Virus record (IMG/VR): IMGVR_UViG_3300028920_000034 | Coordinates: 32,001 to 96,000 of that record | DNA length: 64,000 nt | DNA from: a virus | Direction: 5' to 3' (one strand) | Shown: one piece after another, positions 10,212 through 60,120 of the stretch | Position numbering within the stretch: the first letter of the stretch is position 1 | Layout: each line of letters begins with the position of its first letter | Program-made: the position numbers and the translations under genes | Notes under the pieces: model-generated | Databases searched by the model: none | What the model was told of the DNA's origin: nothing | Seen by the model: only the letters and a program-made list of their open reading frames with translations

Positions 10212-10747
10212 AGGGGCACCTCAATCTGCTCGAGCTCCGGGCAGCCGGACAGCCACACGCGAAGCTGGTCTGGTGTGGTGGCCTCGGGGTCAATGCGAAA
10301 CGAGCCGCCCACCCCGGCCGCCTGGAGCATGATGATCGCCGCCTCCTGGCACGCCCACCGGTTGGGGTTGCGCCATGGGCGCCTGAGCCAGCGTCCGAAC
10401 CAGCGCCGAAGGGCGTGCCAGAGCATCAGCCGGTAATCGTAGGGACGCCCGAGCTCGGCCGCCACGTGCTGGAGCCCCTTCAGGAGACTGATGCGCGCTT
10501 CCGCGTACACCCACACCCGCTTGCCCGGGTCCATGCGCTTCCACTTGGCCCAGGGGAGTACCCGGTATCCGGAGGCGCTGGCCTCGAGCACCAGGCGCTG
10601 CCCCAGCTTGCCGGAGTAGTAGCTCACCGAGGCGTGGCTTGCGCCCGCGGGGGCGCGCGTGAACCACCGGATGGCCCTCCCCAGGAAGGTCTCGGTGGTG
10701 CTCAAGATCACCCAGGTCCGCTGGTCTTCCGAAATTGGCACGCTCAT
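10208..10747 (-). CDS. Permuted NlpC/P60 (YiiX/YebB-like) papain-fold enzyme
   Basis: LGRAIRWFT..SHAS...VLEA..G...GRPYDY...WACQE, with His before Cys. Confidence 0.75.
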   Translation of the reverse strand: MSVPISEDQRTWVILSTTETFLGRAIRWFTRAPAGASHASVSYYSGKLGQRLVLEASASGYRVLPWAKWKRMDPGKRVWVYAEARISLLKGLQHVAAELGRPYDYRLMLWHALRRWFGRWLRRPWRNPNRWACQEAAIIMLQAAGVGGSFRIDPEATTPDQLRVWLSGCPELEQIEVPL

Positions 10748-10805
10748 TGCTTCTGCTTAATTAACCTTATCTCCCCTCTTAGAAGAGAAGAGTCTTGAGG
10801 GTGTC
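10735..10805 (+). promoter_or_regulatory. Dispersed ~70-bp repeat, copy 1 (sigma54-type -24/-12 motif + TTAATTAA + hairpin)
   Basis: TTGGCACGCTCATTGCTTCTGCTTAATTAACCTTATCTCCCCTCTTAGAAGAGAAGAGTCTTGAGGGTGTC. Confidence 0.8.
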
Positions 10806-11410
10806 TACTCGCCGTTCCCCTTCTCGACCGGGCTGATGGACAGGCGAGCTCGCCGGATCAGGGCCTCATCGCTGCCACCCAGACGACGCCAGTTGATGGC
10901 CAGCACCGGCTCACCTCCGGCGGGGAACGGGGCGATGGCCGAACCACTGAACGCGCGCCACTGGTTCAGGTCGGTCACGTCCGTGCCGCGCTCCGTACCG
11001 TTGAGGGTCATCTGGGCGAACGCCCCGGTGTTGGGCGTACCGCTCAGGAGCTTGATCTCGCAGTACCACGTGACCAGGTACTCGCCCCCACTCAGCGGAG
11101 CGGACTGAAGCTCCAGCTTCTCCATCCAGGTCTGCCCAGTGGTGCCTTGCTCGTTCTCCGAGTAGGCATACTGCACATCGCTGGTCGTCTGCTCTCCGGT
11201 GTGGTTCGCAACCAGGTTGTCCAGTGCCGTCTTCTCGGCGGGTGAAAGCGGCCCCTCGAAGACGATGCTGCACACATCGCCGTCCACGTTGATCGCCTCC
11301 AGGGGGACGGTGATGGCCGATTCGGCGTTGATCTCTGCGTACAGCACAGAGGGGTTCACCTGGCCGTTCGGAAAGTCGTCTGCGATGCTGTAATCGTAGC
11401 TGGTGCTCAT
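10805..11410 (-). CDS. Virion structural protein (two-domain mosaic)
   Basis: ATG 11410 with GGAGG RBS. N-domain resembles that of 11458..12483; C-domain resembles that of 12483..13562. Confidence 0.65.
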   Translation of the reverse strand: MSTSYDYSIADDFPNGQVNPSVLYAEINAESAITVPLEAINVDGDVCSIVFEGPLSPAEKTALDNLVANHTGEQTTSDVQYAYSENEQGTTGQTWMEKLELQSAPLSGGEYLVTWYCEIKLLSGTPNTGAFAQMTLNGTERGTDVTDLNQWRAFSGSAIAPFPAGGEPVLAINWRRLGGSDEALIRRARLSISPVEKGNGE

Positions 11411-11457
11411 GAGAAACCTCCATAGAGCGTCAAGCAGCCAGTCGGCTGCGCCTGGGA

Positions 11458-12483
11458 TCACTTGTCATATTCCATGCAGTAGAACGTGACCGACACCACC
11501 TCGCCATCGAAGGCGTTGTGCTCCTCCAACCAAATGCGGATCTCGATGCCCTGCCCATCGATCAGCTCCCGCACCGGGCCAAAGTCGAACGGGATGTTCA
11601 CCACGTCGTACTCCAGGCCGCGCTTCGCTCCGCCCAGCGCCGGAGTGATCGGGAACACGCCGTTGGCCTCCTGAACCAAGTCGAACCACTTCTTGTAGAT
11701 GTGGCCCATGCTGACCGTGGGGCCGCCGATCACAGCCGGCTGGTACTGGAAGGTGTCGTTCATCGTAATGTCGGTGGTGAATTGCGCCTCCGACTTCTCA
11801 ATCCAGAGTTTTTTGCCTTCGTTCGGCCGCATGTAGAACGTGGACCCGTTCTCGTAGCTGTAGTCCGCCGTGACCGTCTTGCCCGCCTGCGACTCAGCGA
11901 ACGTCACCGTGCCGCTCTCGTAGTCGATGGTGTAGTCGCCGCCCTCGTCCTTGAACGCCGGCCGCTCGGCTTTCTCCACGCCGTCCACGTAGACCTTGGC
12001 CAGATACGGTGCGCTCACCCGGTCCTCGCGGAACACCCGGCCGTGAGCCAGATCGATCCAGTTGTCGTGCGGGCTATTGAACGTGAGCCCGTCACCGGAA
12101 TCGGTGAGCGATCCGCCTTCCACGCGCTCGCTGTCACCATACCAGGTACATGGGTCGGTCCACAGGTGCGTCACGATCAGTCGCGCCTCTCCATCGTGCT
12201 GTGGCTCCTTCACCGTGACCAGGCGGTTCTGTGAATCCAGTTGCGCCGTGGGATTCGGAAGCGGCTCGCCACTGTGGGCTGCCACCACACCATCCAGCGT
12301 CGTCTGCTCCCCGGCCGAAAGCTCTGCCTTGAACCAAATATCGCAGTCGTCACCGTTGACGTTGATGTAGTCTAGGGCCACCGTGATGGTGCTCGCTTGG
12401 ATCTCCTGGGTGAGCCGGTCGGACGCGACCTTGCCGCTCGGGAAATCCTCGCTGACGCTGTAGCTGTACTTGGTGTCCGCCAT
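11458..12483 (-). CDS. Virion structural protein
   Basis: 341 aa; N-terminus YSYSVSEDFPSGKV shared with the neighbouring gene; YTIDYESGTVTF beta module. Confidence 0.65.
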   Translation of the reverse strand: MADTKYSYSVSEDFPSGKVASDRLTQEIQASTITVALDYINVNGDDCDIWFKAELSAGEQTTLDGVVAAHSGEPLPNPTAQLDSQNRLVTVKEPQHDGEARLIVTHLWTDPCTWYGDSERVEGGSLTDSGDGLTFNSPHDNWIDLAHGRVFREDRVSAPYLAKVYVDGVEKAERPAFKDEGGDYTIDYESGTVTFAESQAGKTVTADYSYENGSTFYMRPNEGKKLWIEKSEAQFTTDITMNDTFQYQPAVIGGPTVSMGHIYKKWFDLVQEANGVFPITPALGGAKRGLEYDVVNIPFDFGPVRELIDGQGIEIRIWLEEHNAFDGEVVSVTFYCMEYDK

Positions 12484-13562
12484 TAGATCACTCTCCAGAT
12501 TTCCAAACGAGCACGCTTGATTGATGCCGTGTTTCCGCCACTGCTCGCGCAGTAGTCAATGTCAATTTCATGCGACCCGGCCCCCAGGGTCACGTGGCCG
12601 AAGCCAGAGGCCGGATGCGACTGGTTGCCTCCTGGGTCCTTGGGCTCCTGGCGCTGCTCTGCCAGGGTAGTGGTGTCGTCCACTTGGACCCGGCCACGGA
12701 AGTCCTGGCTGGCCAGGCTGTACCGCCACTCATAGGACCAGCCAATCCGGTACGTGCCAGCCGGGAGCGACGGCGTGGTCAGCTTCAGCTTTTGCTGCCA
12801 AGCCGTACTGGTGGTACTTGATTCGCTGTCGCTGGCCGACTCCTGAAACTCGGAACCGAACACGACGGACAGTGGCGTTGGAGCCCACGCGGAACCACTC
12901 CAGGCAAGCACCTCGTCTGCCGATGGTTCCGTCGCAGATACGTTCCGGCCCTGTAGCTTGTCTGCGTCCTGTTTGTCGGCCAGAACGCCGTTCAGACCAG
13001 CTACGCTGATCTCGTCTGCTCCGCCGTCCTGGTGAGTCGATGCGTGATTGGAAGGTGTCTGCGGGTCTGCCAGCGTCCCAGATAGGCCGGTCACGCTGAT
13101 TTCGTCGCTGCCTCCATCCTCATGCGTCGAGCCGTGGCCCGATGGTGTCTGCGGGTCGGCCAGGGTGCCAGATAGGCCAGCCACGCTGATCTCGTCGCTG
13201 CCGCCGTTCTGGTGACTTGCTGCGTGCGCGTTGGGATCACGGGGACTGCTCGCATCGTCCAACGTGGCATCGGAGATCTTGGTGTTCAGGTTGGCCAGCG
13301 TGTCGGCCAGGTGCTCGGAGCCACCGATCAGGTGAGCCTCCACCGCAGCCGTGAGCGTATCCCACGCCGTGTTGCCATCGTTGCGGCGATACAGCTTGGA
13401 GTCCGTGGTGCGCCAGAACAGCTCCTTCGGCTCAGGGCTCGCAGGCAGGGTGCTCCCAGACGGAACAATGAGAATACCACCATCGTCCCGGTCGAATTCA
13501 TACACCCCGGCGATGACCTTGCTGGTGGAGTCGTCAATGACGACAATCGTTGCTCCGCTCAT
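12483..13562 (-). CDS. Tail-fibre-like protein with His-containing repeats
   Basis: Three 30-aa repeats HxxxHxxGGxDEISVxGLxGxLAD; LQGRNVSATEPSADEVLAWSGSAWAP fibre motif. Confidence 0.65.
   Translation of the reverse strand: MSGATIVVIDDSTSKVIAGVYEFDRDDGGILIVPSGSTLPASPEPKELFWRTTDSKLYRRNDGNTAWDTLTAAVEAHLIGGSEHLADTLANLNTKISDATLDDASSPRDPNAHAASHQNGGSDEISVAGLSGTLADPQTPSGHGSTHEDGGSDEISVTGLSGTLADPQTPSNHASTHQDGGADEISVAGLNGVLADKQDADKLQGRNVSATEPSADEVLAWSGSAWAPTPLSVVFGSEFQESASDSESSTTSTAWQQKLKLTTPSLPAGTYRIGWSYEWRYSLASQDFRGRVQVDDTTTLAEQRQEPKDPGGNQSHPASGFGHVTLGAGSHEIDIDYCASSGGNTASIKRARLEIWRVI
12960..13226 (-). repeat. Three ~90-bp in-frame tandem repeats
   Basis: Encode HAASHQNGGSDEISVAGLSGTLADPQTPS and two variants. 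Confidence 0.75.
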
Positions 13563-14113
13563 GTAAGCACCGCCGTCTGGCTGGCCAGCTTTCCGCCGCT
13601 CCAGGTGTACGTGATCGTCAGTGTCTCCACAGCGACACCGCTCCCATCGTACTGAATGATCACTTCGGTGGCCACCCGGCTCCCGCTGTAGGTGTACTGG
13701 TACTCGCGCACCTTCAACGTCTTGGTAACGTCGGTCCAGTAGGTCATGTTGGTGAGCCTGGCACCGCTCCAGGTGTTCTCCAGGTAGTAGCTCTCGGCCA
13801 CATCGTGTACGAGCTGGTCCAGCACCCTGTGGGTTGCCGGCGTGAGCCCGCCACCACCTGTAGCTAGATCGGTAAGGGTCAGAGGCGTGGTGTTCTCCAC
13901 GTCCTCGAAGGTCATGCGGTCCGCGCCGTCCTGGGACAGCTTGACCGTCTTGCGGATGGTGGTGTCCGGAGATGGGCGCTGGGGGTAGATTCCACGGGCA
14001 GCGAGCACATCTTCCCAGGGATTCACCTCCCCTGGGGTGTAGTCGGTCTCGGTGCCTCCGCTGCTAGGACTTTCCCACTTTACAGGGAGTACCGCATCGC
14101 CATCGGTGCCCAT
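13559..14113 (-). CDS. Virion structural protein
   Basis: 184 aa with GGAGG RBS; beta-rich YTYSG C-terminus. Confidence 0.6.
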   Translation of the reverse strand: MGTDGDAVLPVKWESPSSGGTETDYTPGEVNPWEDVLAARGIYPQRPSPDTTIRKTVKLSQDGADRMTFEDVENTTPLTLTDLATGGGGLTPATHRVLDQLVHDVAESYYLENTWSGARLTNMTYWTDVTKTLKVREYQYTYSGSRVATEVIIQYDGSGVAVETLTITYTWSGGKLASQTAVLT

Positions 14114-14134
14114 CTGCGGCCTCCAATCTGGAAG

Positions 14135-14160
14135 GCCGGGCAGCCCTATCGCTGCCCGGC
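14135..14160. terminator. Intergenic GC-rich stem-loop
   Basis: GCCGGGCAGC-CCTATC-GCTGCCCGGC; no strong U-tract. Confidence 0.45.
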
Positions 14161-14171
14161 TCCAGGTTGCG

Positions 14172-15572
14172 CTACACGCGCTTGGTGCCCAGGTCCATCA
14201 CCTGCACGTCCAGGTCGGATCCGTTGGCGGCATAGCCCATGCGGACCACGCGGCCCGGGGTGGGGATGCTGCCGAAGGTCACCAGGGCGCCAGCCGTGCC
14301 CAGGAAGTAGGGCGTGTTGACCGTGGCGCCACTCAGGCACCCGGTACAGATCCCATGCTTCACCACGTCGCTGGTACCGGGGTTGGCCCCGCCGCCCGTC
14401 TGGGCCACACCGATGGTCCGGGAGTTGGCCGGGGTGGCGATGGGCGCGTTGTCCGCGTGCTGGATCTCGTTGTTGACCGCGCTCCACCGGACCGCACGGC
14501 CACTGGTGACGGCCGCGTTGTTCAAGTGCGTGTCGAGCACCTTTTTGGCGCTGGACACCGCGGAAATGGTGTGGGTGTGCAGCGAGTCCGCGTTGGACGT
14601 GGGGCCCGCCGTGAGGGTGTTCAGGTTGGCCGCCGTCACGTTGGCGCTCACGGCCACGTCGTTGATCTTGAACAGGCTCGGCACACCGACCACCTTGAGC
14701 CCGTCGCCGTCCACGTCCAGGGTGTCCGGAGTGTCGTCCAGCTCGAGCTCCACGCCGCTGGTGCCAAGCACCAGGCCGTGGGCGCCGTCCACCAGGACGC
14801 GGAGCTGCTTGTCCGGCGAGGTGCCGGTGAGCTCGAGGCCCGGCGTGGTGGCCAGGTCGATGCCCACGCTGTCCGTGGGGAGCTCGGTGATACCGTCACC
14901 GAAGTTGACGGACAGCACGTTGCCGGTCAGGTCCAGGCCGGCGCCCGCGGTGAAGTTGCCGCCGGAGAACTGGATCCAGGTGTTGGTATCGTAGACGAAC
15001 GCCTTGTTCTCGTAGATGGACTGCTCACCGTTGATCAGGATGGCCCAGCCGTCCGTGGTGGTATCGAAGCTCCAGGAGTCCCCGGTGGCATCGTAGGTGC
15101 CGATGTTGTTCTCTTCGCTGGCGAACGATCCGGCGGCGCCGGTGCCGATCACCACCACCCGGGTGCCGTCCGGGGGCTCGCCGCCGGAGTTGGCCACCAC
15201 CACGTTCCACTGGGAGCCGTCCCACTCCACAATGTCCCCGTCCGTCTGGGTGCTCCAGTTGTTTACCAGGTAAGCGTCACCGGCCGCCGGCGCCGCGGGG
15301 TCGGATCCGCCCTGGTCTGCGTCGGACACGATCTTGAGCACAGCCGCCGGATCCTTCCATGCCAGACCCGAGGCCACGCTATCCACGTAGGCTTTCGATG
15401 CCGCCGCCGTGTCGCCGCTGGGTGTACCCGGTAGACCGGTCACCTCGTTCGATCCCATGGCAATGTCGCCATTCATCACGATGCCAGCGAGGGTGAGCTC
15501 GTCCGCCGTGGGGTCGTGCTGATCGTGGAATCCGTTGCTCGGATCCAGCTTGAAAAATCTGACTTGGGCCAT
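14172..15572 (-). CDS. Fibre/whisker-like structural protein
   Basis: AASKAYVDSVASGL, WDGSQW, FTAGAGLDLTGNVLSV, SLHTH and a C-terminal cement-like domain (GLSG..Y.LG..G). Confidence 0.7.
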   Translation of the reverse strand: MAQVRFFKLDPSNGFHDQHDPTADELTLAGIVMNGDIAMGSNEVTGLPGTPSGDTAAASKAYVDSVASGLAWKDPAAVLKIVSDADQGGSDPAAPAAGDAYLVNNWSTQTDGDIVEWDGSQWNVVVANSGGEPPDGTRVVVIGTGAAGSFASEENNIGTYDATGDSWSFDTTTDGWAILINGEQSIYENKAFVYDTNTWIQFSGGNFTAGAGLDLTGNVLSVNFGDGITELPTDSVGIDLATTPGLELTGTSPDKQLRVLVDGAHGLVLGTSGVELELDDTPDTLDVDGDGLKVVGVPSLFKINDVAVSANVTAANLNTLTAGPTSNADSLHTHTISAVSSAKKVLDTHLNNAAVTSGRAVRWSAVNNEIQHADNAPIATPANSRTIGVAQTGGGANPGTSDVVKHGICTGCLSGATVNTPYFLGTAGALVTFGSIPTPGRVVRMGYAANGSDLDVQVMDLGTKRV

Positions 15573-15599
15573 GTCTCGGTGCTCCTGTCCAGAAGATGG

Positions 15600-16160
15600 T
15601 TAGACCACCCGACTGTTCAGGAATTCGGCTTCCGCCTCGTCCTCAGATCCAGATTCGGGTGATTCGGTTTTCTTGGGCTGGCTGGCCTGTTGAGACGGCT
15701 TCTGATTGCCGATCTCGTTCAGGTCACCCATGTAGATGATCTTGCCGTCCGACTGCCAGGTGTAGTTCTGAAGGTTGATCCCGAGCTTGTTCTCGAGCTC
15801 CCCCAAAAACACCTTCATCTCGTTGTCCGCCTGGCGAACCTCCGCCTCCGCGGAGTTGATCTCGGCCCGCTTGGCTGCCTTTTGTGCGATGTGATCCCGC
15901 ATGAGGATCTCGAGCCCTTGCCTGGCGTTCAGGAGCTTCGCCTGGGTGCCGTTCACCCGCTCCACCATGAACTTGCTCATGAGCCAGTCGCGCTCCTCGA
16001 GGGTAATCTCAGCGAGCGGATGGAGCTCGTCCTTGTCCGCAGGCTCTGGCACAGACTTGGCCTTGGCCGGCTTCTTCTTGGAAGCCGCCTTGCGCTTCGT
16101 GGTGCGCTTCTTGGCCGGAGCCTTTTTTGAACGGGTGGATTTCGATGCCTTCGTTGTCAT
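15600..16160 (-). CDS. Hypothetical protein with Lys-rich N-terminus and coiled coil
   Basis: ATG 16160 with GGAGG RBS; histone-like KKAPAKK tail; preceded by its own sigma70-like promoter. Confidence 0.65.
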   Translation of the reverse strand: MTTKASKSTRSKKAPAKKRTTKRKAASKKKPAKAKSVPEPADKDELHPLAEITLEERDWLMSKFMVERVNGTQAKLLNARQGLEILMRDHIAQKAAKRAEINSAEAEVRQADNEMKVFLGELENKLGINLQNYTWQSDGKIIYMGDLNEIGNQKPSQQASQPKKTESPESGSEDEAEAEFLNSRVV

Positions 16161-16222
16161 CTTCGCCTCCAATCGGGTTTCCCTTTGGTGGGATTCGAAT
16201 CTTGATTTGGATCTCGGGCATC

Positions 16223-16251: not shown

Positions 16252-16256
16252 CAGTA

Positions 16257-18364: not shown

Positions 18365-18580
18365 TCACGTCCTTTCCCATGGCCGGCGCCCTTCGGCTAC
18401 GGCCTGTACTGCGCTCTCGAGGGTGTGTCCCACGAAGTCCTGGACACTCATCCCGAGGCGAATCGCTGCGTCGGAGAGCTGCCTATATCTTACAGGAGTT
18501 GTCACCAGAACGAAATTGTCCTCGCCCTGGACGGTCTCCACGGGGACCGCGCTCGCATCATCATCCGGTTGGCTTCTCAT
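18365..18580 (-). CDS. Small protein, possibly ribbon-helix-helix-like
   Basis: 71 aa; YRQLSDAAIRLGMSVQDFV. Confidence 0.45.
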   Translation of the reverse strand: MRSQPDDDASAVPVETVQGEDNFVLVTTPVRYRQLSDAAIRLGMSVQDFVGHTLESAVQAVAEGRRPWERT

Positions 18581-18581: not shown

Positions 18582-18653
18582 TTGGCACGCCTGTTGCTTC
18601 TGTTTCTCTATACCCTATCTCCCCTCTTAGAAGAGAAGAGTCTTGAGGGTGTC
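18582..18653 (+). promoter_or_regulatory. Dispersed repeat, copy 2 (divergent AT core)
   Basis: TTGGCACGCCTGTTGCTTCTGTTTCTCTATACCCTATCTCCCCTCTTAGAAGAGAAGAGTCTTGAGGGTGTC. Confidence 0.75.
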
Positions 18654-18669
18654 CGCCTGGCACCCGTGA

Positions 18670-26398: not shown

Positions 26399-27390
26399 CA
26401 GGACACCACCTCTGCCCGGAAGCCGGAGTCAGCGGACACATCGCTGTCCGCCAGAATGTCATAGCGATGCCCGATGCTGGCCACGGCCGTGTCCTCCGCC
26501 ATGATGTACTCGAGCTCCACGTGGATCGGCACCACGCCATCGCCAGTGTCCAGCCCGATCTTGCGCCACATGCGCTTGAAAGCATCCGCGATGGTGAGCT
26601 CGCTCTGGCCACCGATGGCGCCAGTGGTAATCTCCAACCGAATGCGATGCGTCTTGCACTTCCGACACGTCTCCACGCACCCGCCCACCACGCTCTGGTA
26701 GGTGGCCTTCGGTGCCCCGGCCACCACCCCGGTCAGCGTCAAGTCTGCATAGCCCCACCCGTAGTCGATGGTGCCCACCTCGGTGAGCCCCACCAGGAGC
26801 TTGCCGTCACCGTCATCGGTGATCGTGTTACCGGCGATGGTGATCACCACCGAGCTCGGTTCCGCGGGCGCGCACTTGAGCCAGATCTTGTACCGGGTAT
26901 CCGTGGACACCGTGCGCTGGTAGGTCGGGCTTTCCCCGCCCACCACCGGAGGCGTCGTGAGGTACTTGATCCCATCCCACCAGAGCGGATGAACGTCCAC
27001 CTCGAAGCCGTGAACCCTGCACAGCACCACGTAGGACTCGAGGATGCCTTTGATGATGTTCCACCTGGCCGCCAGGCCCGCGCGCATCCGCTGGTAGCCG
27101 AGCGGCTCCGCCAGGTCCACTTCGATCCCGAAATTCTCCCCCAGGTACAGGAGGAGATCCTCGCGGATCTCCCTCGGATTGGTGATGTACTTGAACCGGT
27201 CCAGGTGCCGCTTGAGCCAGGTGAAGCTGGGGCACATCGCCTCCACGAACTTCAGGTACGGGCCCCCGGCGTCCACGTCCTGCTGACGCACATCACCCGG
27301 GAGCTCATCGTACAGGACGATCTTGCACCAGTCGCTCTCCCCGAATGGGGTCGTCCCGAAAGCACGATTTCCGAATCCATACCGAGCCAT
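26398..27390 (-). CDS. Baseplate wedge protein (P2 gpI-like)
   Basis: NPREIREDLLLYLGENFG...R...KG and VPIHV motifs; lies downstream of the gpJ-like gene. Confidence 0.65.
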   Translation of the reverse strand: MARYGFGNRAFGTTPFGESDWCKIVLYDELPGDVRQQDVDAGGPYLKFVEAMCPSFTWLKRHLDRFKYITNPREIREDLLLYLGENFGIEVDLAEPLGYQRMRAGLAARWNIIKGILESYVVLCRVHGFEVDVHPLWWDGIKYLTTPPVVGGESPTYQRTVSTDTRYKIWLKCAPAEPSSVVITIAGNTITDDGDGKLLVGLTEVGTIDYGWGYADLTLTGVVAGAPKATYQSVVGGCVETCRKCKTHRIRLEITTGAIGGQSELTIADAFKRMWRKIGLDTGDGVVPIHVELEYIMAEDTAVASIGHRYDILADSDVSADSGFRAEVVS

Positions 27391-27394: not shown

Positions 27395-27463
27395 TTGGCA
27401 CGTCCTTTGCTTCTGCTTAATTAACCTTATCTCCCCCTTATGGAGATAAGAGTCTTGAGGGTC
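27395..27463 (+). promoter_or_regulatory. Dispersed repeat, copy 3
   Basis: TTGGCACGTCCTTTGCTTCTGCTTAATTAACCTTATCTCCCCCTTATGGAGATAAGAGTCTTGAGGGTC; perfect stem CTTATCTCC/GGAGATAAG. Confidence 0.8.
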
Positions 27464-27464
27464 C

Positions 27465-35285: not shown

Positions 35286-35702
35286 CTACTCCTCGTCCAG
35301 TGGGCACCCGGGCAGCTCGGGCACCTCGGGCACCTCGGGCGGAGTCGGCACCGGAGGGATCGCCGGTGGCGTCGGGATGGCAGGCACCGGGATCGGGGGC
35401 ACCGGAGGCAGCGCGGCAACCGGAATGCTGTCCGGAGGCGTAGGGAGCTCCGGGAGCTCCGGCACTGACGGCGGAGTCGGCACCGGGGGCAACGCCGGGG
35501 GCGTCGGGATAGCCGGCACCGGCACCGGTGGCACCGCCACCACGGGCACACTCGCGGGCGCGCCTGGGAGCTCCGGGAGCTCCGGCACGACTGGCGGAGT
35601 CGGCACCGGGGGCACCGCTGGGGGCGTCGGGACTGCCGGCACGGGCAGGGGGCACGTCCCTCACTTGGAGGCCGCTTGAGTCGCTGTTCCGAGATCAACC
35701 AT
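35286..35702 (-). CDS. Proline-rich repeat protein; reading frame from ATG 35702 interrupted by in-frame TGA (alternative start GTG 35642)
   Basis: MVDLGTATQAASK*GTCPLPVPAVPTPP...PGCPLDEE, with about three 41-44 aa Pro-rich repeats. Confidence 0.55.
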
Positions 35703-35705: not shown

Positions 35706-35774
35706 TTGGCACGCTCATTGCTTCTGCTTAATTAACCTTATCTCCCCTCTTAGAAGAGAAGAGTCTTGAGTGTC
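35706..35774 (+). promoter_or_regulatory. Dispersed repeat, copy 4
   Basis: TTGGCACGCTCATTGCTTCTGCTTAATTAACCTTATCTCCCCTCTTAGAAGAGAAGAGTCTTGAGTGTC. Confidence 0.8.
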
Positions 35775-35780
35775 TCCGGT

Positions 35781-44959: not shown

Positions 44960-45032
44960 GGATCTACTCAAGAGTTATACAGGTGTTGTAGATCCCATGT
45001 CAATGGGACTGGCGTGATCTGATTCGAATCAG
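44960..45032 (-). promoter_or_regulatory. sigma70-type promoter overlapped by inverted repeats (operator region)
   Basis: TTGACA (45003-44998)-18 nt-TATAAC (44979-44974). IRs GGATCTAC/GTAGATCC (44960/44988), TCCCAT/ATGGGA (44993-45008) and CTGATTCGAATCAG (45019-45032). Confidence 0.65.
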
Positions 45033-53721: not shown

Positions 53722-54624
53722 CTAGTACGGGTCTCGGCCCGTGATCGCGTAGTAGTCACGATCCTTGGCCACCCGCACCGCATAGGGCTCGCCCTGGGTG
53801 TGCCGCTGCCAATCACGGGCGCGTCCCTTCCCCGTGAGCTCAATCATCCGCCGGTCGGGGACGCCCCCCTTGGACTTCCGCCGCTTGGCGTACTGCCACT
53901 GGACCATCTTGCGCCTGGCGATCATCTGGGAACTCTTAGCCGGGCTGTGGTGGAACTTGTACCCGGTTCGCTTCCCACGCACGTAGATCGCCCGAACCAT
54001 GTGCTTATACATATTGGCGTGCGAAACGGCCGCCTTGTACTTTCCTGGCTTTCCCTTGGGACCCTTGCGCCGGAGAATCGCCTCCGGTGGCTGGCCCTTT
54101 CGTGGCTTCACTGGCAGGTTGCCCGCGCTCCTCGAGGTAGTATCCAGGTTCGCCGGCCACGGCTCCGGGTACTCCGGCCCGGGTGGCCCCGGAATCGGGA
54201 TGCCCTTGGAGTCGAATCGCGGGCCTTCCTTGCCTGGCTTCGGAGGAGCTCCACCTGCATGGCGCTGCGTCGGGATCTCCACCCGGCCACCCGGCTCATC
54301 CTTGGGCTGCTTCTTGGGGATGCCCACCTTGGTGCTCGGTGGCTGTGGCCGAGCTGCCGCCGGTTTCGTGGTAGGCTTCTTGACTTCCTTGCGCTTCTTG
54401 AACAGGTCCTTGAGCCGCTGGGCCGCCCGGGACTTGAGCTCCTTGGCACGCTGGATAGCCGACTTGGCCACCTTCCTGGCCCCGCGCAACACGTCACCGA
54501 GCCGCTCGTCTAGCACCTCCTGGCCGTAGGTGGCCACGGGCACCGGGACAGAGCTCTCCGCCATGGCGCGCATCGCCCGCGCACGCGAGGCGATGGGGTT
54601 GGGCTTGGAAAGGGAGACCAGCAT
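53722..54624 (-). CDS. Highly basic hypothetical protein, putative internal head protein
   Basis: 300 aa, Lys/Arg/Pro-rich after VLDE/R. Confidence 0.55.
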   Translation of the reverse strand: MLVSLSKPNPIASRARAMRAMAESSVPVPVATYGQEVLDERLGDVLRGARKVAKSAIQRAKELKSRAAQRLKDLFKKRKEVKKPTTKPAAARPQPPSTKVGIPKKQPKDEPGGRVEIPTQRHAGGAPPKPGKEGPRFDSKGIPIPGPPGPEYPEPWPANLDTTSRSAGNLPVKPRKGQPPEAILRRKGPKGKPGKYKAAVSHANMYKHMVRAIYVRGKRTGYKFHHSPAKSSQMIARRKMVQWQYAKRRKSKGGVPDRRMIELTGKGRARDWQRHTQGEPYAVRVAKDRDYYAITGRDPY

Positions 54625-54625
54625 C

Positions 54626-55213
54626 CTACTCCTCGAGCACCCCGGAATCGTCTACCACCTGGCGCACGGCCTCGAGCATCACCTCCGCCGTCTCGGGTGA
54701 CAGGTCCACCTGGCCGCCGGCCTCGAGGAGCCCCATGGTGGCGAGCTCCGCGTTCACCGCGCCCACGGCCGCGCCCACCAGGCGCTTCCAGTGGTCGGCG
54801 TTGAGGGCCACGTTGCCATCGTCCTCGAGCTCGAGGCCCAGGCTGTCCGCCTCCGGCACGTTCTTCAGCTTGGAGCTGCCGTTGCTCCCCGGCTTGTCCT
54901 TGGAGCACTTCTTTCCGGCCGCGCCGGCTTCGCTCACCAGGGACAGGACGTTGCTCAGACGATCCTTCAAATCACCCTTCATCACGGACTTCTGGGCATC
55001 GGACATGATTCTTTCCTCCGCCGCGGACTCACCGCGGATTCTCTGCACCGCTGTTCCCAGGGCGCGCTTTCTGTGCCCGAGCTTGGTAGCAGCGGACACC
55101 TTTTTCGACGGCTTGACCCCCTTCACGGCTCCCCAGGTGAGATACCTGTGACTCATCTTGGGGAGCTTGGCCGTCTTGGCCGTAGCGTGGTGGGGGCCTT
55201 TTTTGCCGCTCAT
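54626..55213 (-). CDS. Hypothetical protein
   Basis: 195 aa; internal KDRLSNVLSLVSE/A motif. Confidence 0.55.
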   Translation of the reverse strand: MSGKKGPHHATAKTAKLPKMSHRYLTWGAVKGVKPSKKVSAATKLGHRKRALGTAVQRIRGESAAEERIMSDAQKSVMKGDLKDRLSNVLSLVSEAGAAGKKCSKDKPGSNGSSKLKNVPEADSLGLELEDDGNVALNADHWKRLVGAAVGAVNAELATMGLLEAGGQVDLSPETAEVMLEAVRQVVDDSGVLEE

Positions 55214-55216
55214 AGG

Positions 55217-55633
55217 CTACACACCTTTCACGATTTTCTCGTACTCCGCATCCTTGTTGGCCGCGTCACCCTGGCGAGCGAAGTAGGTAGCGCGGCCGGT
55301 TCCCTTCCTTGTCAGCTTGCGGGAGCCCTTGCGTACCTGTCCAGCCTTTTGCATGGCCGCCGTGCAGATGGCGAACGCTTTGGACAGGCCCTCCTTTCCC
55401 TTTTCGCCTTTCTGGTACACGTCCACCACGCACCGGCGGATCCCACGTGGGTTCTGGCTCACCAGCTCTCCCTCGCTGTCGCGCTTCTCGCGAATGGGCA
55501 CCAGGCGCTTGCCGCCATCGAACACCCAGGACGGCTCCCCGGTGATCTCAGGCTCCGGGTGCGTCCAGAGCTCCCACTCCCCCTCGTCCTCAAGCTGGTG
55601 GGCCAGGCCCTCGTATAGCTCACGGATGCTCAT
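55217..55633 (-). CDS. Hypothetical protein
   Basis: 138 aa; P.....CV..V......S.AFAICT..MQK.G domain of a kind seen in phage head-region proteins. Confidence 0.6.
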   Translation of the reverse strand: MSIRELYEGLAHQLEDEGEWELWTHPEPEITGEPSWVFDGGKRLVPIREKRDSEGELVSQNPRGIRRCVVDVYQKGEKGKEGLSKAFAICTAAMQKAGQVRKGSRKLTRKGTGRATYFARQGDAANKDAEYEKIVKGV

Positions 55634-56334
55634 CGATCACCTCGTTCCCAGGAGCCAGTGGACACCTGGTGTACCCAGTTGTTCAGTGCGGCGTGGGCCT
55701 GGCGGAGAGAGCCATGGAACTGATCCACCGTGGCTTGCTGTGCCGGGTTGAGGTGCCTCCGCCTCTCCCTGGGAAAATCGTCGCTCATGGCGATCTTGGA
55801 CAGAAAGTCATTCCACACCTTTAGGGCACGGCGTGGGTCTCCTTTCCTGCGTGCCTCGGTGAGCCCCTCGCTCTCCTGGGCAAACATAGCCGCGATGCTG
55901 TTGGGGTCATCCTGGGCGCCAGGCACGCCCTGGGGCTTTCCACCGCCAAGGCGCTGGCCATCCGCCAGGAGACCACGCATCGCTCCCAGGCGCTCGCGCA
56001 CGTCCGCGCGATCCCCGAGGGTAGCAATGGACTCGGTGCGCCCGCGCCGCTTCCCCTTGCGCTTCCCTTTGCCTTGGAACCGCTCCCAGACCTTGGGCCA
56101 CCGCTTCTTGACGGCCTTGAATACCTGGTCCTTGTGCTTCTTGTTGTCGGGCCACGTGGCGTAGGTCAGCGCGGTCATCGCCTGCTTCGCGCTCTGGATC
56201 GGAAACAGCCGCTCGCCGGGGATGGCGAAGTCCTTGTCCGATAGCGCCTCCCGCGTTGACTGGGCCATCTCCCCGAAGTGCTCCGCATCGTTCACCTGGT
56301 CCACTGCGCCCTGCAATCGGTCCTTGATTTCCAT
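55630..56334 (-). CDS. Hypothetical head-region protein (DUF6582-like domain)
   Basis: REALSDKDFAIPGERLFPI....A..AL motif; GGAG RBS. Confidence 0.6.
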   Translation of the reverse strand: MEIKDRLQGAVDQVNDAEHFGEMAQSTREALSDKDFAIPGERLFPIQSAKQAMTALTYATWPDNKKHKDQVFKAVKKRWPKVWERFQGKGKRKGKRRGRTESIATLGDRADVRERLGAMRGLLADGQRLGGGKPQGVPGAQDDPNSIAAMFAQESEGLTEARRKGDPRRALKVWNDFLSKIAMSDDFPRERRRHLNPAQQATVDQFHGSLRQAHAALNNWVHQVSTGSWERGDR

Positions 56335-56345
56335 TCTGTCCTCCG

Positions 56346-56416
56346 GAGACCCTCTTGACTCTTACTCTCCAAAGGGAGAGATAAGGTTAATTAAGCAGAA
56401 GCAACACCCGTGCCAA
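56346..56416 (-). promoter_or_regulatory. Dispersed repeat, copy 5 (inverted)
   Basis: Minus strand TTGGCACGGGTGTTGCTTCTGCTTAATTAACCTTATCTCTCCCTTTGGAGAGTAAGAGTCAAGAGGGTCTC. Confidence 0.8.
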
Positions 56417-56418
56417 GT

Positions 56419-56850
56419 CTAGTAGTCGCTGGTGTAGTCCACGTCCACGTAGAAGCCTCCACCCTTGATCCAGTGATACCAGACGATGGGGTGACTTCCC
56501 GGCTCACTCAGGCCCACCTGGTCCCCGAGGGGATGATTCTCGGTGAGCCCAGCTTCTTTCATAAACTTCAGGAGCTGGCGCTCCATGTTGCGTGTGTACT
56601 GGGCCAGGTCCTGGGTGAACATGCCCTTTTTGCCCACACCAGCCGGGGTGGGCTTGTAGAACGTGTCACCCTGTGGGTTGGTGTAGGAACCGCCACCAGC
56701 CTTTGTGCCCTTGAGCACCTTGGAAAAGCCGTTGCCGGTAAGGAGCCCGACAATGCGCCTGGTCTGCGGGGTCATCTTGGACTCGAAGAGGCGCTCGGCC
56801 TCCTCCGTGATCTCCCCCACCTTGCGGATTCTGTCGCTGATTTCGCTCAT
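56419..56850 (-). CDS. Putative internal head protein
   Basis: MSEISDRIRKVGEITEEAERLFE/S N-terminus. Confidence 0.55.
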   Translation of the reverse strand: MSEISDRIRKVGEITEEAERLFESKMTPQTRRIVGLLTGNGFSKVLKGTKAGGGSYTNPQGDTFYKPTPAGVGKKGMFTQDLAQYTRNMERQLLKFMKEAGLTENHPLGDQVGLSEPGSHPIVWYHWIKGGGFYVDVDYTSDY

Positions 56851-56856
56851 GGCTTC

Positions 56857-57777
56857 CTATCCCAGGGACGGCCACATCAGGATGGTCACGTTGTAATCCT
56901 TGCGCCGCCGTTGTTTGTTCTTGGGGTTGTACTCGTCCGCGCGCACCACGATGCCAGCCGAGCGGTCTGGCATCTCCCACCGCTTGAACACGGCCTTGAC
57001 GAACTCGCGCTCCCCGGCTTGCTCCTCGGTGGTGCCGTGGAGCTGTGGGTCGCGTTTGGCGAACCGCGTCACCACTCCCAGGAGCTTCTGGAGCTGCGCC
57101 GCGTCCATGTCAGCATTGAACCGATGGGCCTTGTCCCGGATGCCCGAAATGGACACGCGCTTCTGGTGACGCATCCGGAGCTTCTTGAACCAGTCGCGGA
57201 GCTTGCTGGCATCCGTCTCCCAGTCCATGACCGTCTTGTCTTGGCGGTCACTGATGCCACTCAGGAGACGAGACCCCTCGGGGCTATCGTACATGAGGAG
57301 AGTCATCCGCGCGTAGTAGCCGGGCTCTCCCCCGTCACGCAGGTACATCCGGTAGGCGCGATCATCGTCACGCCACACGGTCTCGTCCGAATGCTCCCTG
57401 GTGAGCCGAATCGCCGGGTCCTTAGAGCTCCGCACCCACACGACACCGTTCGGTGAGCTCTCTCGCCGGTACTTCGCCGCCCGGGCCCAGGAGTCAATCA
57501 TGCGCTCGGCCTTGCCGTAGGTCTCCCACGCCTTTCCGTCATCCTGGATCGGCCCATCGTAGCCGTACTCCAGGTCTCCCCAGGAGCCCCACCTGGTGAG
57601 GTGCCTATCGGCCCGCTTGAGAAGCGAGTCAATGTCCTCTGGGGGAGGGCCGTAGCGGTAGTCTGCCGGATCGTACTGATCTTTCCGAAGCGTGGCCCGG
57701 TACTTCCCGCCGATGAACCGCGCCTTGGCTTCGGTCACCAGGGCGCCGGCCGCGTGTAGGCGCTCGCGGAGCTGCAT
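56857..57777 (-). CDS. Putative internal head protein
   Basis: ATG 57777 (TGATG overlap); MQLRERLHAAGALVTE/AK. Confidence 0.6.
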   Translation of the reverse strand: MQLRERLHAAGALVTEAKARFIGGKYRATLRKDQYDPADYRYGPPPEDIDSLLKRADRHLTRWGSWGDLEYGYDGPIQDDGKAWETYGKAERMIDSWARAAKYRRESSPNGVVWVRSSKDPAIRLTREHSDETVWRDDDRAYRMYLRDGGEPGYYARMTLLMYDSPEGSRLLSGISDRQDKTVMDWETDASKLRDWFKKLRMRHQKRVSISGIRDKAHRFNADMDAAQLQKLLGVVTRFAKRDPQLHGTTEEQAGEREFVKAVFKRWEMPDRSAGIVVRADEYNPKNKQRRRKDYNVTILMWPSLG

Positions 57778-58184
57778 CAGGTCTCCCCGAGGGCCGCCGG
57801 GGCGAACATCACGGTGGCCCGCAGCTCGGTGGTGGTGGGCGTGCCCGTGGTCACCAGCTTGAGCTTCTGGCCAGGCAGGAGAGTGACCCGATTCGCAGCG
57901 AGGAGAACGTACACCACACTCGAGGTGCCAGTGAGCCACGCCATATCCCCGGCCACCGGGTCCACGATGTTGAGGGTCCAGGTGGACTGCCCGGCACCCT
58001 TGAACTGGAACCCCATCACCTCCACGGCCCGTTTCTCGGAGCCGGTGAACTCGAATAGGCCACCATGACTGTTCACGGTGTCCTTTGGGTACACCTTCAC
58101 GCCGTCTGTGGTGACCGGATCAGTGGTCGGGAGCACGCCATCGAAGTTGTCGCCAACGTCCATGACTTGTGTGATTGCGAACAT
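57777..58184 (-). CDS. Hypothetical beta-rich structural protein
   Basis: 135 aa with GGAGG RBS. Confidence 0.6.
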   Translation of the reverse strand: MFAITQVMDVGDNFDGVLPTTDPVTTDGVKVYPKDTVNSHGGLFEFTGSEKRAVEVMGFQFKGAGQSTWTLNIVDPVAGDMAWLTGTSSVVYVLLAANRVTLLPGQKLKLVTTGTPTTTELRATVMFAPAALGET

Positions 58185-58185
58185 G

Positions 58186-58470
58186 CTACGCCTCCACCAT
58201 CCCGCGATCCCACAGGGACGCGATGTAAGGCTTCACGCCCTTGCCCTTGGCCACCAGCTCGCCCCACCGGCACCCCGTCTCGAAGTCGAAAGCGGAGTAC
58301 ACCGGGGCGCGATACAGGGCGCCGTTCCGGAGGTAGTATTCGTGCCCGTCCAGGAACCCAAGATGGCCCCAGCTCCACTTCATGCCCTGGTAGGTCGGGT
58401 GCTCGTAAGGCTGCACCCCATGGACCATTTCCTGGAGCTCCTGGAAGTCCTCGGTGATGTTCTTCGCCAT
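58186..58470 (-). CDS. Small hypothetical protein, putative internal head protein
   Basis: MAKNITEDFQELQE/M; GAGGAG RBS. Confidence 0.55.
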   Translation of the reverse strand: MAKNITEDFQELQEMVHGVQPYEHPTYQGMKWSWGHLGFLDGHEYYLRNGALYRAPVYSAFDFETGCRWGELVAKGKGVKPYIASLWDRGMVEA

Positions 58471-58484
58471 GTGGGTCGTCTCCT

Positions 58485-59240
58485 CTACCCAGTGATGATG
58501 GCCGGCGGAGGCATCAGGGCCATGAGCTCCCTGTCCAGCCGCTCAAAGTCCGCCTGGGCCTCCTGGAGCAAATTGTCACCATCCAAGCTCACATTGCCCT
58601 GGGCCGCCGGCAAGCCCCCGGTGTACTTGCCGCGAATCCTGCCCAGGATGTACTTGGACTCCGCCAGGGCACGCTCCCTGATCAGGAACGCATCCTGGGG
58701 AGGAACCATGGACAGGTACTTCGAATCGAACGGGGTCTCGTACTTGTAGACGATCTTCTGCGCCACCATGTTGTCGCTCGGACGCGGCGTGATGGTGAGC
58801 ACCTTCGTTTGCGAGTTGAAAATCCAGTCCGCGTCCACGGACAGCACCCGCGCGCCCGTCTCCCTCATCTGTTGCCACTGGACGATCCCACTGTAGAAAC
58901 CACCCTGCCCCTCGTTCTGGAGATACCAGTCATAGGGATAGCCTTGCACGTCCAGGAACCCATCCCAAAGGTACTCCAGGTCCCACCCGTAGTCCGCCAC
59001 GAAGTAAATGTCGATGATGCCCACCACGGGCGGATCTACCGCGCTCAGATCGTACTCGGACTGATCGGTGACCAGTTGGAGCTCGGCCTCCTTGTACCAG
59101 CCCCTGTAGGCGCTCCACCAGATGAACGCATCGGTGATCGCCTGGTCCACCTGCTCCTCGTCCAGCTCCACGCAGACCACCGGGTGACCCAGCTTCCGCA
59201 TGATGAACGAGCGGATGTTTTCGATACCCAATGTGGCCAT
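58485..59240 (-). CDS. Neck / head-tail adaptor protein (T4 gp13-like)
   Basis: I...LG.PVV.VEL...Q...AI..A, ALA..K..LG.IRGKY...P...G.V.LDG..L..EA. Confidence 0.8.
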   Translation of the reverse strand: MATLGIENIRSFIMRKLGHPVVCVELDEEQVDQAITDAFIWWSAYRGWYKEAELQLVTDQSEYDLSAVDPPVVGIIDIYFVADYGWDLEYLWDGFLDVQGYPYDWYLQNEGQGGFYSGIVQWQQMRETGARVLSVDADWIFNSQTKVLTITPRPSDNMVAQKIVYKYETPFDSKYLSMVPPQDAFLIRERALAESKYILGRIRGKYTGGLPAAQGNVSLDGDNLLQEAQADFERLDRELMALMPPPAIITG

Positions 59241-60038
59241 CTAGTACCCCGTATCCAGGTCCCCCTCTAGCTCCACAGCGTCGAGATCTTCCTGTACCAC
59301 CCATGCCGGCCATCCCTCGAGCTCGGTGTGCTCCACCAGGCGCACACTGTCGGTGAATACATCGATCTCACCGAGGGCCGGGAAGTTGACGGTGACAAAA
59401 TGCGGGCGAACGTCCACCACGTCCCCGCGCATCCCGTGGAACGGCTTGTCCTGGCCCCTGGCGGCCACAACCTCCACCGTGGTGCCGCGTCTCACCTTGC
59501 CGCGGACCTTCGGCGCCTTGCGCTTCTCGCCCAGCACGGTGCGGGCGTACTCACCCTCCCAGGTGTTGCCAGTGATCACGTCCTGGACAACACCGAACAG
59601 CGGATCTCTCCACTCGTTCGCCGCCGCCGCCGCTTCCTTTTCGGCCTTGGCCATGAGCTCCGCGCGCTTGCGGGCGCGCCCGGCCCGGATGTTGCGCCGC
59701 TTGCGCTTCCGGAAGCCCATGAGCTTCTCGTACTCCGCCTGACCCTTGGACTCCCACCACCGCCAGCTCGCCGTGGCCAGCCGAGTGAAAAACTCTTCGC
59801 TGTGCAGATCCATGGTCGGATCGTTCCGGTACTTGTACCGGAGCCCCTTGAGGAGCCGCTGGAAACCCTTGATCGCCACCCGCTTGGTGTTGTTGTCCTG
59901 GCCGTAGGTCTTGAAGGCGTGGGCCTGGATGATGTTGTTGAGCTCCCGCCCAGGAGGGAACCGCTTGCTCGGGTCGCTGTGAACAGCCACCTCGTCCAAG
60001 TAGGTGCCCCAAAGCCGGGGCCGGGCTGGCCAGATCAT
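59241..60038 (-). CDS. Hypothetical protein with C-terminal KOW/SH3-like domain
   Basis: ATG 60038 with GGAGG RBS; G..VEV.......G..G.VV.V....V.V.F. Confidence 0.6.
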   Translation of the reverse strand: MIWPARPRLWGTYLDEVAVHSDPSKRFPPGRELNNIIQAHAFKTYGQDNNTKRVAIKGFQRLLKGLRYKYRNDPTMDLHSEEFFTRLATASWRWWESKGQAEYEKLMGFRKRKRRNIRAGRARKRAELMAKAEKEAAAAANEWRDPLFGVVQDVITGNTWEGEYARTVLGEKRKAPKVRGKVRRGTTVEVVAARGQDKPFHGMRGDVVDVRPHFVTVNFPALGEIDVFTDSVRLVEHTELEGWPAWVVQEDLDAVELEGDLDTGY

Positions 60039-60051
60039 GAGCGCCTCCAAG

Positions 60052-60120
60052 TTGGCACAAGATGTGCTTCTGCTTAATTAACCTTATCTCCCCTCTTAGA
60101 AGAGAAGAGTCTTGAGTGTC
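60052..60120 (+). promoter_or_regulatory. Dispersed repeat, copy 6
   Basis: TTGGCACAAGATGTGCTTCTGCTTAATTAACCTTATCTCCCCTCTTAGAAGAGAAGAGTCTTGAGTGTC. Confidence 0.8.

Follow-up and report, generated by a model that had tools for sequence, protein, structure and literature searches.

The 64,000-nucleotide stretch analysed here (the window) belongs to the genome of an uncultured T4-related myovirus, an IMG/VR record of 153,114 bp and 64% GC. All of its real genes lie on the minus strand, the plus-strand open reading frames being shadow frames (GC1<GC2, high GC3). Between these genes lies the sole dispersed repeat family of the phage genome, a cassette of ~72 bp that opens with a sigma-54-type -24/-12 box. 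The earlier note had described six copies, and a search of the window with the pattern TTGGCAC-N5-KTGCT (at most one mismatch) recovered all of them, at 10735, 18582, 27395, 35706 and 60052 on the plus strand and 56400-56416 on the minus strand, with the same spacers. There are exactly six matches, compared to a mean of 0.44 in 100 shuffles, none of which reached six. Extending the scan to the whole genome, as that note had proposed, brought the total to twelve: four copies run with the genes (sense) and eight against them (reversed).

Genome coordinates
15783, 24022, 42735, 50582, 59395, 67706, 92052, 112573, plus strand: reversed copies (n = 8)
140118, 103637, 88416, 1751, minus strand: sense copies (n = 4)
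Window coordinates
10735..10804, plus strand: copy 1, reversed; -24/-12 box 10736-10750, predicted start ~10762
10766-10790, plus strand: inverted repeat of copy 1; its GAGGG at 10797-10801
10805-10807: stop codon of the minus-strand gene upstream of copy 1; ATG of the downstream gene at 10745-10747, inside the box spacer
18582..18655, plus strand: copy 2, reversed; AT-rich block diverged, 1-nt insertion; minus-strand ORF of 71 aa downstream, beginning at 18580, 1 nt off the box
27395..27464, plus strand: copy 3, reversed; best-paired inverted repeat of the window (9 bp); ATG of the downstream gene at 27390
35706..35775, plus strand: copy 4, reversed; GAGTG instead of GAGGG; gene-strand ATG 4 nt past the box, its frame ending after 13 codons
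60052..60121, plus strand: copy 5, reversed; -12 box GTGC, GAGTG instead of GAGGG; flanked by an 89-aa gene specific to this genome relative to its sister; downstream gene with its own GGAGG and ATG
56347..56416, minus strand: copy 6, sense (genome 88416); -24/-12 box 56401-56415, predicted start ~56389
56361-56385, minus strand: hairpin of copy 6; its GAGGG at 56350-56354
56419-56421: TAG of the gene upstream of copy 6, 2 nt ahead of the box
55630..56334, minus strand: first gene behind copy 6, 234 aa, no family, first of the tail-sheath block
56339-56344, minus strand: GGAGGA of the 234-aa gene, followed by its ATG at 56332-56334

With all real genes on the minus strand, the window has five antisense copies and one sense copy, in line with the first description, and the placement of the window copies relative to stop and start codons likewise agrees with that description. 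The twelve copies are spaced fairly evenly along the one-directional genome. In gene order the first six alternate between sense and antisense, bracketing modules, a pattern noticed post hoc whose exact order has a chance of ~1%.

Behind each of the four sense copies a gene in the same orientation follows directly with a Shine-Dalgarno sequence and ATG, whereas the other 8 of the 12 have no ORF behind them. The upstream stop codon ends 2-12 nt ahead of the box in the sense copies, and in three of the four GAGGG is followed by an ATG 7-8 nt on; the fourth has its own GGAG before the ATG. Counting 19 nt from the motif centre, as in PMC4591121, puts the predicted start in TTAATTAA, with the hairpin beginning 4 nt further on. 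The earlier note had a single sense copy to go by; the layout of promoter, leader, Shine-Dalgarno and ATG is now seen in several. The copy at genome 103637 precedes the portal, protease and capsid block, and that at 88416 the sheath, tube and tape-measure block. The four sense copies look like working promoters.

The reversed copies occupy tight gaps separating one gene's stop codon from the start of the following gene. For four to five of them the next start codon lies a few nucleotides from the cassette end, lacks a Shine-Dalgarno of its own and stands 23-27 nt after TTAATTAA.

Anatomy and conservation of the cassette

The six window copies align over ~70 nt with 44 invariant columns. The cassette consists, in order, of the box, the AT-rich block TTAATTAA at the predicted start, an imperfect inverted repeat and GAGGG; its flanks are unrelated coding sequence. 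The box is the full published sigma-54 consensus, Y-TGGCACG-N4-TTGCT (general form TTGCW). A sister genome, ~93% identical, carries the same twelve copies, and the invariance of GG-N10-GC first reported for the window extends to both genomes: all 24 of the copies retain both GG and GC, while 8-9 of the 24 differ in the 4-nt spacer core. Single deviations from the box are TGGCAT (once) and GTGC (once). A base-composition estimate puts the chance of finding TGGCAC-N5-TTGC on either strand of an unrelated 70-bp repeat at ~1e-4. Outside the cassette, degenerate sigma-54-like motifs (two mismatches) number 28, against 30 expected.

The block from -11 to ~+20 matches the boxes themselves in invariance, so that sigma-54 binding alone is an insufficient explanation; gene conversion could hold the cassette sequence identical without selection. 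The alteration of the AT-rich block in copy 2 and the GAGTC(TT/AA)GAG segment were both found as previously noted. Of the hairpin claimed there, the inverted repeat occurs in every copy, but its folding is no better than that of dinucleotide shuffles (z -0.1 to -1.2). The repeat exists in 14 variants among the 24 copies, with mostly one-sided G/A changes and few true double changes, and the asymmetry of G-U versus C-A pairs does not favour the sigma-54-transcribed strand. We do not claim a selected RNA structure.

Several other identities were considered for the element. No Rfam 15 family matches in the window at gathering score. Scans covering five of the six window copies report no intrinsic terminator, a reading that we reject because at most two U follow the stem on either strand, with no U-run. 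A sigma-70 promoter on the opposite strand is also rejected: the AA variant makes TTGACT, but a spacing of 16-19 nt offers no usable -10, and TTGACT is missing from the TT variant. In the aligned copies and their flanks we found no terminal inverted repeats, target duplications or transposase of the kind that would mark a MITE- or REP-like repeat.

Transcription machinery and proposed explanation

No RNA polymerase (multisubunit, or T7-type in a search that had no positive control) and no sigma-70 region 2 was found in the phage genome. Lacking a polymerase and a sigma-70-type factor of its own, the phage must use the host polymerase. Ordinary sigma-70-like promoters are present elsewhere on the gene strand. 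Sigma-54 requires an ATP-driven activator. The earlier note had raised the prospect of a phage-encoded sigma-54 or bEBP; neither was found in the genome, and no real frame encodes a protein with GAFTGA. The only PF00158 match is a ComM/Mg-chelatase-like AAA+ protein that lacks GAFTGA and has a Walker A with GSGR. In the 260 nt upstream of the copies, no 6-8-mer exceeds random controls as a shared enhancer. The activator is possibly host-encoded, or its site may lie inside the cassette.

The endolysin-like protein resembles families that are commonest in Pseudomonadota and Acidobacteriota, phyla that possess RpoN; this resemblance is a weak lead toward such hosts. The 23-27-nt distance from TTAATTAA to several start codons had prompted a reading of TTAATTAA as an archaeal TATA box with leaderless starts, which was set aside in view of the peptidoglycan-binding lysin and the good sigma-70-like promoters.

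We consider the element to be, probably, a portable sigma-54 (RpoN) promoter-leader cassette, assuming a host with RpoN. From its sequence we infer that host RNA polymerase carrying sigma-54 would bind the -24/-12 box of all copies. At the sense copies, activator-dependent initiation inside TTAATTAA would produce a leader of ~45-55 nt whose hairpin begins 4 nt in from the 5' end and which has GAGGG as Shine-Dalgarno, the ATG following 7-8 nt later in three of the four; these copies would serve as internal promoters of gene blocks, the head and tail blocks among them. The reversed copies would be the same cassette set backwards in tight gene junctions, placing sigma-54 polymerase head-on to transcription arriving through the virion operons. 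Activation would yield antisense RNA that is not translated and that covers the upstream gene's 3' end; read on the mRNA strand, the copies would supply a hairpin, an AU-rich stretch and sometimes the start codon of the next gene. They may act through antisense RNA or as a roadblock, or they may be a by-product.

An extended form of this proposal, which we regard as unlikely, is a virus-wide, activator-gated sigma-54 switch. The sense copies would open head, tail and accessory blocks, and the reversed copies would fire or sit head-on against read-through, using antisense RNA or collision to insulate or time the modules. A phage protein not yet recognised would dock on the -11 to +20 block and activate or lock sigma-54 polymerase, with no classical enhancer or GAFTGA ATPase. 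As to layout, the reversed copies that such a switch would employ lie at the distal end of each of the first three blocks and within the baseplate/tail region.

Exchange among sites and other explanations

Comparison is limited in power by its base, two close genomes that carry the cassette. A scan of viral contigs with the box-free part of the cassette retrieved the sister genome and chance matches only, and among the metagenomes scanned only the contig behind the sister genome carries it. A single genome contig, from a Spirochaetes MAG, matched: there TGGCACGGCGC supplies the 3' arm of a terminator hairpin located downstream of tRNA genes, with a T-rich tail. We take this match as coincidence and not as a host clue, given a GC content of 53-55% versus 64% in the phage and no second copy. 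More distant relatives, whose capsid proteins are 51-72% identical, show no excess of sigma-54 boxes over control and lack dispersed repeats, and synteny with them stops at the copy-5 site; similarity to the sister genome also breaks inside or beside copy 5.

One hairpin variant is common to four sites in this genome, and two of the sister orthologues of those sites differ from it; cassettes have therefore been exchanged among sites. Such sharing between non-orthologous sites of one genome, with differences between orthologous ones, is among the observations behind a first alternative, which we find somewhat unlikely: the sigma-54 cassette is real and its reversed copies are functionless, having been spread or homogenised by recombination or gene conversion in the manner of PeSL cassettes, landing in either orientation, harmless, and partly co-opted by the mRNA strand. 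The 8:4 orientation split fits random insertion; the absence of the element from the distant relatives and the end of their synteny at copy 5 also speak for this alternative, as do the broken GAGGG in two reversed copies of this genome and the weakened -12 box in one. The cassettes at genome 15783 and 92052 sit exactly on insertion or replacement boundaries relative to the sister; however, these 2 of 12 compare with ~0.8 expected by a rough estimate, and the association with breakpoints is not significant. Also against this alternative, GG and GC are kept in 16 of 16 reversed copies across the two genomes, the first six copies alternate in orientation, albeit as a post hoc observation, and no terminal inverted repeats or target duplications were seen.

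A second alternative, decidedly unlikely in our judgement, is that sigma-54 is not involved and the element is orientation-independent, its box matching by coincidence or serving another protein. It might be a site for a phage regulator on the invariant block that surrounds the palindrome TTAATTAA, a bidirectional promoter for host polymerase acting through an unrecognised phage factor, or a REP-like intercistronic hairpin that stabilises or processes the polycistronic mRNA. Both orientations do occur in the same type of junction, TTAATTAA is palindromic, the hairpin could function on either strand, and in most copies folding is slightly more favourable on the opposite strand. The invariance from -11 to +20 beyond what sigma-54 needs, the start codons without Shine-Dalgarno 23-27 nt after TTAATTAA in several reversed copies, and the even spread over a one-directional genome also accord with it. 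Yet the full extended consensus, placed right at the margin of the repeat and with invariant boxes around a variable spacer, would be a very improbable product of chance, and TTAATTAA does not recur elsewhere as an AT-rich island. On the opposite strand no -35/-10 pair of sigma-70 type stands at workable spacing, the gene strand already has sigma-70-like promoters elsewhere, and there is neither a terminator U-tract nor a matching Rfam family.

Very unlikely, finally, is action without transcription, with closed complexes as roadblocks or insulators in late operons or twelve sites titrating host sigma-54; it would suit the failure to find activator or enhancer and the stable, non-firing binding of sigma-54 holoenzyme, for which repression of other promoters in E. 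coli is proposed in PMC8743547, but a pure binding site would not need the leader, Shine-Dalgarno and ATG of the sense copies, and the boxes here have no overlapping sigma-70-like promoter.

Significance and comparison with known systems

In the promoter-leader reading that we favour, a near-perfect sigma-54 promoter-leader has been multiplied to twelve junctions, two of them heading capsid and tail blocks, in a phage with no polymerase, sigma factor or recognised activator of its own. If the copies are active, late expression would depend on a signalling ATPase of the host or on a novel type of phage activator, and the reversed copies would represent a natural instance of antisense or roadblock control programmed through sigma-54. 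The cassette would also be a compact natural expression unit, with predicted promoter, 5' hairpin and ribosome site in ~72 bp.

REP palindromes of enterobacteria are spread by a dedicated transposase. Like the cassette, they are short hairpin repeats between operon genes in both orientations; unlike it, they have no promoter box, and no transposase is seen for the cassette.

There is, to our knowledge, hardly any record of lytic phages exploiting sigma-54. We found one mapped phage promoter of this kind, the sigma-54-like promoter of Pseudomonas phage YuA (Ceyssens et al. 2008; re-mapped in PMC10914365). YuA and the present phage have host sigma-54 promoter signals in common, with a single, experimentally mapped promoter there and twelve dispersed copies in both orientations, read from sequence, here. 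The cassette suggests that viral use of sigma-54 is under-described.

In E. coli, both intergenic and intragenic antisense sigma-54 sites are known (PMC4591121). Intragenic and antisense sites in E. coli and Salmonella (PMC4591121, PMC3844500) and 'repressive' RpoN promoters (PMC8743547) resemble the reversed copies in being consensus sites directed against neighbouring genes, for which antisense RNA, interference or repression by holoenzyme has been proposed. Those sites are single, unrelated to one another and of lower score, whereas the cassette is one repeated unit with near-perfect boxes in a virus.

The PeSL (promoter-early stem-loop) cassettes of T4-type myoviruses (PMC2839356, PMC4122927) are likewise repeated composites of promoter and stem-loop at intergenic junctions of a T4-related myovirus, with recombinational exchange of copies. 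Some PeSLs lie where close relatives differ by an indel; two of the twelve cassettes abut such a breakpoint, no significant excess over the ~0.8 expected by a rough estimate. PeSLs have sigma-70 early promoters and occupy hyperplastic early regions; the present cassette is of sigma-54 type, lies mostly in virion blocks and is reversed in two thirds of its copies.

Bacterial RpoN promoters such as glnAp2 and pspA, which work with bEBP activators, share with the cassette Y-TGGCACG-N4-TTGCW with GG and GC 10 nt apart, an AT-rich predicted start and, for the sense copies, a leader, Shine-Dalgarno and gene behind. The cassette differs from glnAp2 and pspA in having no upstream enhancer that we could find and no recognisable activator gene, and in the invariant 45 nt past its box and its twelve near-identical copies, eight of which face every gene of the phage.

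Copies and anatomy of the cassette

The ~72-bp cassette, which opens with a sigma-54-like -24/-12 box, is real, repeated and far beyond chance. All six window copies lie at the places and carry the spacers first described for them; aligned, they share 44 invariant columns over ~70 nt, and shuffles gave a mean of 0.44 matches and reached six in 0 of 100 cases. Scanning the whole IMG/VR virus record (153,114 bp, GC 64%), of which the window is bases 32001–96000, for further copies, as the earlier note had proposed, brought the total to twelve. The cassette is the sole dispersed repeat family in this genome, and box motifs with two mismatches occur elsewhere in it at chance level.

Cassette copies (genome coordinates) and cassette parts (5' to 3' on the box strand)
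15783, 24022, 42735, 50582, 59395, 67706, 92052 and 112573, + strand: cassettes (n = 8)
140118, 103637, 88416 and 1751, - strand: cassettes (n = 4)
Part 1: Y-TGGCACG-N4-TTGCT
Part 2: TCT(G/T)CTTA(A/C)TTAACC, invariant
Part 3: CTTATCT, opening an imperfect inverted repeat
Part 4: AAGAGTC(AA/TT)GAGGGT

Across the 24 copies of two genomes, this one and its sister, TGGCA and TGC are constant, while at the four central spacer positions 8–9 of the 24 deviate from the majority. The match to the published extended sigma-54 consensus extends to all of its defined positions. By the rule that transcription starts 19 nt from the motif centre (PMC4591121), the predicted start would fall within TTAATTAA, and the inverted repeat would begin 4 nt from the RNA 5' end. 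The hairpin assigned to the element in the earlier note survives in part: the inverted repeat is present, in 14 variants with stems of about 5–10 pairs, but its stability is no greater than that of dinucleotide shuffles (z -0.1 to -1.2). G-U versus C-A asymmetry singles out neither strand, and the opposite strand folds slightly better in most copies; we therefore speak of an inverted repeat and not of a proven RNA structure.

A degenerate, reversed thirteenth relic lies outside the window, at about genome 103930–103990. It is identical at about 22 of 30 positions over the TTGC...CTTATC part, lacks the -24 box, and overlaps a TTGACA promoter of sigma-70-like type that closely precedes the sense copy at 103637.

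Sense and reversed copies in their gene context

Roughly 170 genes are all on the minus strand (essentially all, by a GC3-based gene call), and the few plus-strand ORFs combine high GC3 with GC1 < GC2, a shadow-frame signature. Among the window's genes are those for a T4-like capsid protein, the tail sheath, the tape measure and a baseplate wedge, with a T4-type portal and prohead protease just beyond its edge; no tRNA genes were found in the genome. Capsid identity to cultured phages is at most 33%, leaving only distant relatives among them, and a DNA search of the phage collection gave no match. Among ten large proteins scanned outside the identified virion genes, three had a Pfam match and none was a DNA polymerase.

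In the four sense copies, whose box points with the genes, the box begins 2–12 nt after the stop codon of the upstream gene. Three continue with GAGGG and, after 7–8 nt, an ATG; in the fourth, a separate GGAG and ATG follow about 45 nt downstream. Each sense copy is thus a predicted complete unit of promoter, leader, ribosome site and gene. In gene order, the copy at 103637 stands ahead of the portal, protease and capsid block, and the one at 88416 (window 56416) ahead of the block with sheath and tape measure.

The mostly antisense orientation noticed in the window holds genome-wide, with 8 of 12 copies reversed, that is, with the box pointing against the genes. Their junctions are no less tight than those of the sense copies: the upstream gene's stop codon lies 2–9 nt past GAGGGT (or GAGTGT) in five of these and 11–20 nt away in the remaining three. 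Proximity to start codons, also claimed earlier, is likewise borne out: in five of eight, no more than about 10 nt separate the TTGGCAC end from the start codon of the next gene. One such ATG (window 10745–10747) falls within the box spacer, so that the -24 box encodes residues 3–4. None of the eight reversed copies has an ORF behind it. Eight spacers occur among reversed copies versus only two among sense copies, and in five of the reversed copies the spacer version gives rise to an ATG on the mRNA strand; this suggests that reversed copies have been shaped to suit the mRNA strand. Listed in gene order (S, sense; A, reversed), the orientations are S A S A S A A A A A A S; a module thus lies between each of the first three sense copies and a reversed copy facing it, a post-hoc pattern to which we give little weight.

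Near copy 4 (reversed, window 35706), an ATG 4 nt past the cassette opens a frame (window 35660–35702) that ends at TGA after 13 codons; in the sister genome its first 12 residues are the same bar one substitution. The gene downstream of this copy is repeat-rich.

Transcription machinery and other control elements

The phage-encoded sigma-54 and GAFTGA-bearing activator that the earlier note had suggested looking for did not emerge: no sigma-54 DNA-binding domain is encoded in the genome, and the only match to the sigma-54 activator family lacks GAFTGA. That match, a 325-aa AAA+ protein (genome 108457–109434; 13457–14434 of L056, a stretch of the same genome outside the window), has a short AAA+ core, GSGR in place of GSGK in Walker A and an N-terminal half without known family, and is better described as ComM/Mg-chelatase-like. 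Sigma-70 region 2, a T7-type polymerase and a multisubunit polymerase were also absent from the phage genome; with no polymerase or sigma factor of its own found, the phage therefore needs the host polymerase. Comparing the 260-nt stretches that precede all twelve copies revealed no common motif beyond what random controls gave. Activation, if it happens, would need a host bEBP, an enhancer-independent activator or a site inside the invariant cassette. A lysin-like protein is similar to PG_binding_1/GH46 proteins, a group found most often in Pseudomonadota and Acidobacteriota; this agrees only weakly with a Gram-negative, RpoN-bearing host.

Other intergenic regions have ordinary sigma-70-like promoters on the gene strand, many of them with the palindrome GATTCGAATC next to them; forward transcription therefore does not require the reversed cassettes as promoters.

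Other candidate control elements
Window 16192–16201 and 45021–45030; genome 98861, 99176, 120840, 122883 and 122930: the seven perfect occurrences of the 10-bp palindrome GATTCGAATC
Window 4672–4975: 304-bp intergenic region in which a ~26-bp unit (GTCTACATGGTCAGGACG...) occurs three times as a direct repeat

The palindrome's 8-nt core, ATTCGAAT, occurs 8 times where 0.5 are expected. Of the seven palindromes, at least five are intergenic, several of these beside sigma-70-like promoters (e.g. TTGACA-N18-TATAAC at about window 44990), and the element resembles an operator to which a phage regulator would bind. The 304-bp region additionally holds one inverted unit copy and an AT-rich stretch, and is a candidate origin or iteron-type control region; a gene-strand sigma-54-like box within it (window 4716–4731) has a broken -12 element (TTGA).

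Relatives, readings and precedents

Queried with its box-free part, the cassette matched only one other record, IMGVR_UViG_3300029258_001212, to which the metagenome contig Ga0180432_10000065 is identical over the cassettes. This sister genome (153.5 kb, with terminal repeats) is about 84–98% identical in collinear blocks and has all twelve cassette sites and orientations in common. Spacer and hairpin variant are often not the same in orthologous cassettes, and non-orthologous ones within a genome can be identical (one variant occupies four sites in the present genome); one reversed copy of the sister has acquired the CCGATGGCAG found after a sense copy. Together these observations indicate recombination or gene conversion among copies. 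The cassettes at 15783 and 92052 lie precisely on the edges of insertions or replacements that distinguish the two genomes; by a rough estimate, two such cases are not above chance. About 430 bp extra in the sister abut the cassette at genome 15853, and an 89-aa gene (window 60129–60398) absent from the sister adjoins copy 5, at 92052.

In relatives with 51–72% capsid identity, one of them a 159-kb genome, sigma-54 boxes were no more frequent than in controls and dispersed repeats were lacking; gene junctions there are of the usual kind and carry terminator-like hairpins and GGAGG sites. Homology to one of these relatives stops at the copy-5 site. Since the relatives are without it, the cassette is a recent acquisition of one lineage, and conservation can accordingly prove only so much. 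The sole bacterial-genome match to the box plus AT-rich block, in the Spirochaetes MAG contig JAKLIV010000008.1 (L059 5690–5750), is a striking look-alike but was judged coincidental; it belongs to a tRNA-distal terminator, in which TGGCACGGCGC forms the 3' arm of the stem and a T-rich tail comes next.

We consider a sigma-54 promoter-leader unit the best explanation of the cassette and a reasonably probable one, because chance is very unlikely to produce the full consensus around a variable spacer and because sense copies would be whole expression units in plausible positions. The reversed copies, for their part, may be active as antisense promoters or act as head-on roadblocks. They may also be part of an orientation-independent element, the invariant core having another ligand. 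Or they could be tolerated by-products of a recombining cassette, by analogy with the PeSL cassettes of T4-type phages (PMC2839356, PMC4122927). In E. coli, sigma-54 sites of antisense and intergenic-antisense type have been documented (PMC4591121), and bound RpoN holoenzyme has been put forward as a repressor (PMC8743547). The only phage precedent that we found in the library searched is the sigma-54-like promoter of phage YuA (PMC10914365). Judged from its sequence, the cassette is best filed with two known kinds of element, the sigma-54 promoter and the repeated promoter/stem-loop cassette of T4-related phages.
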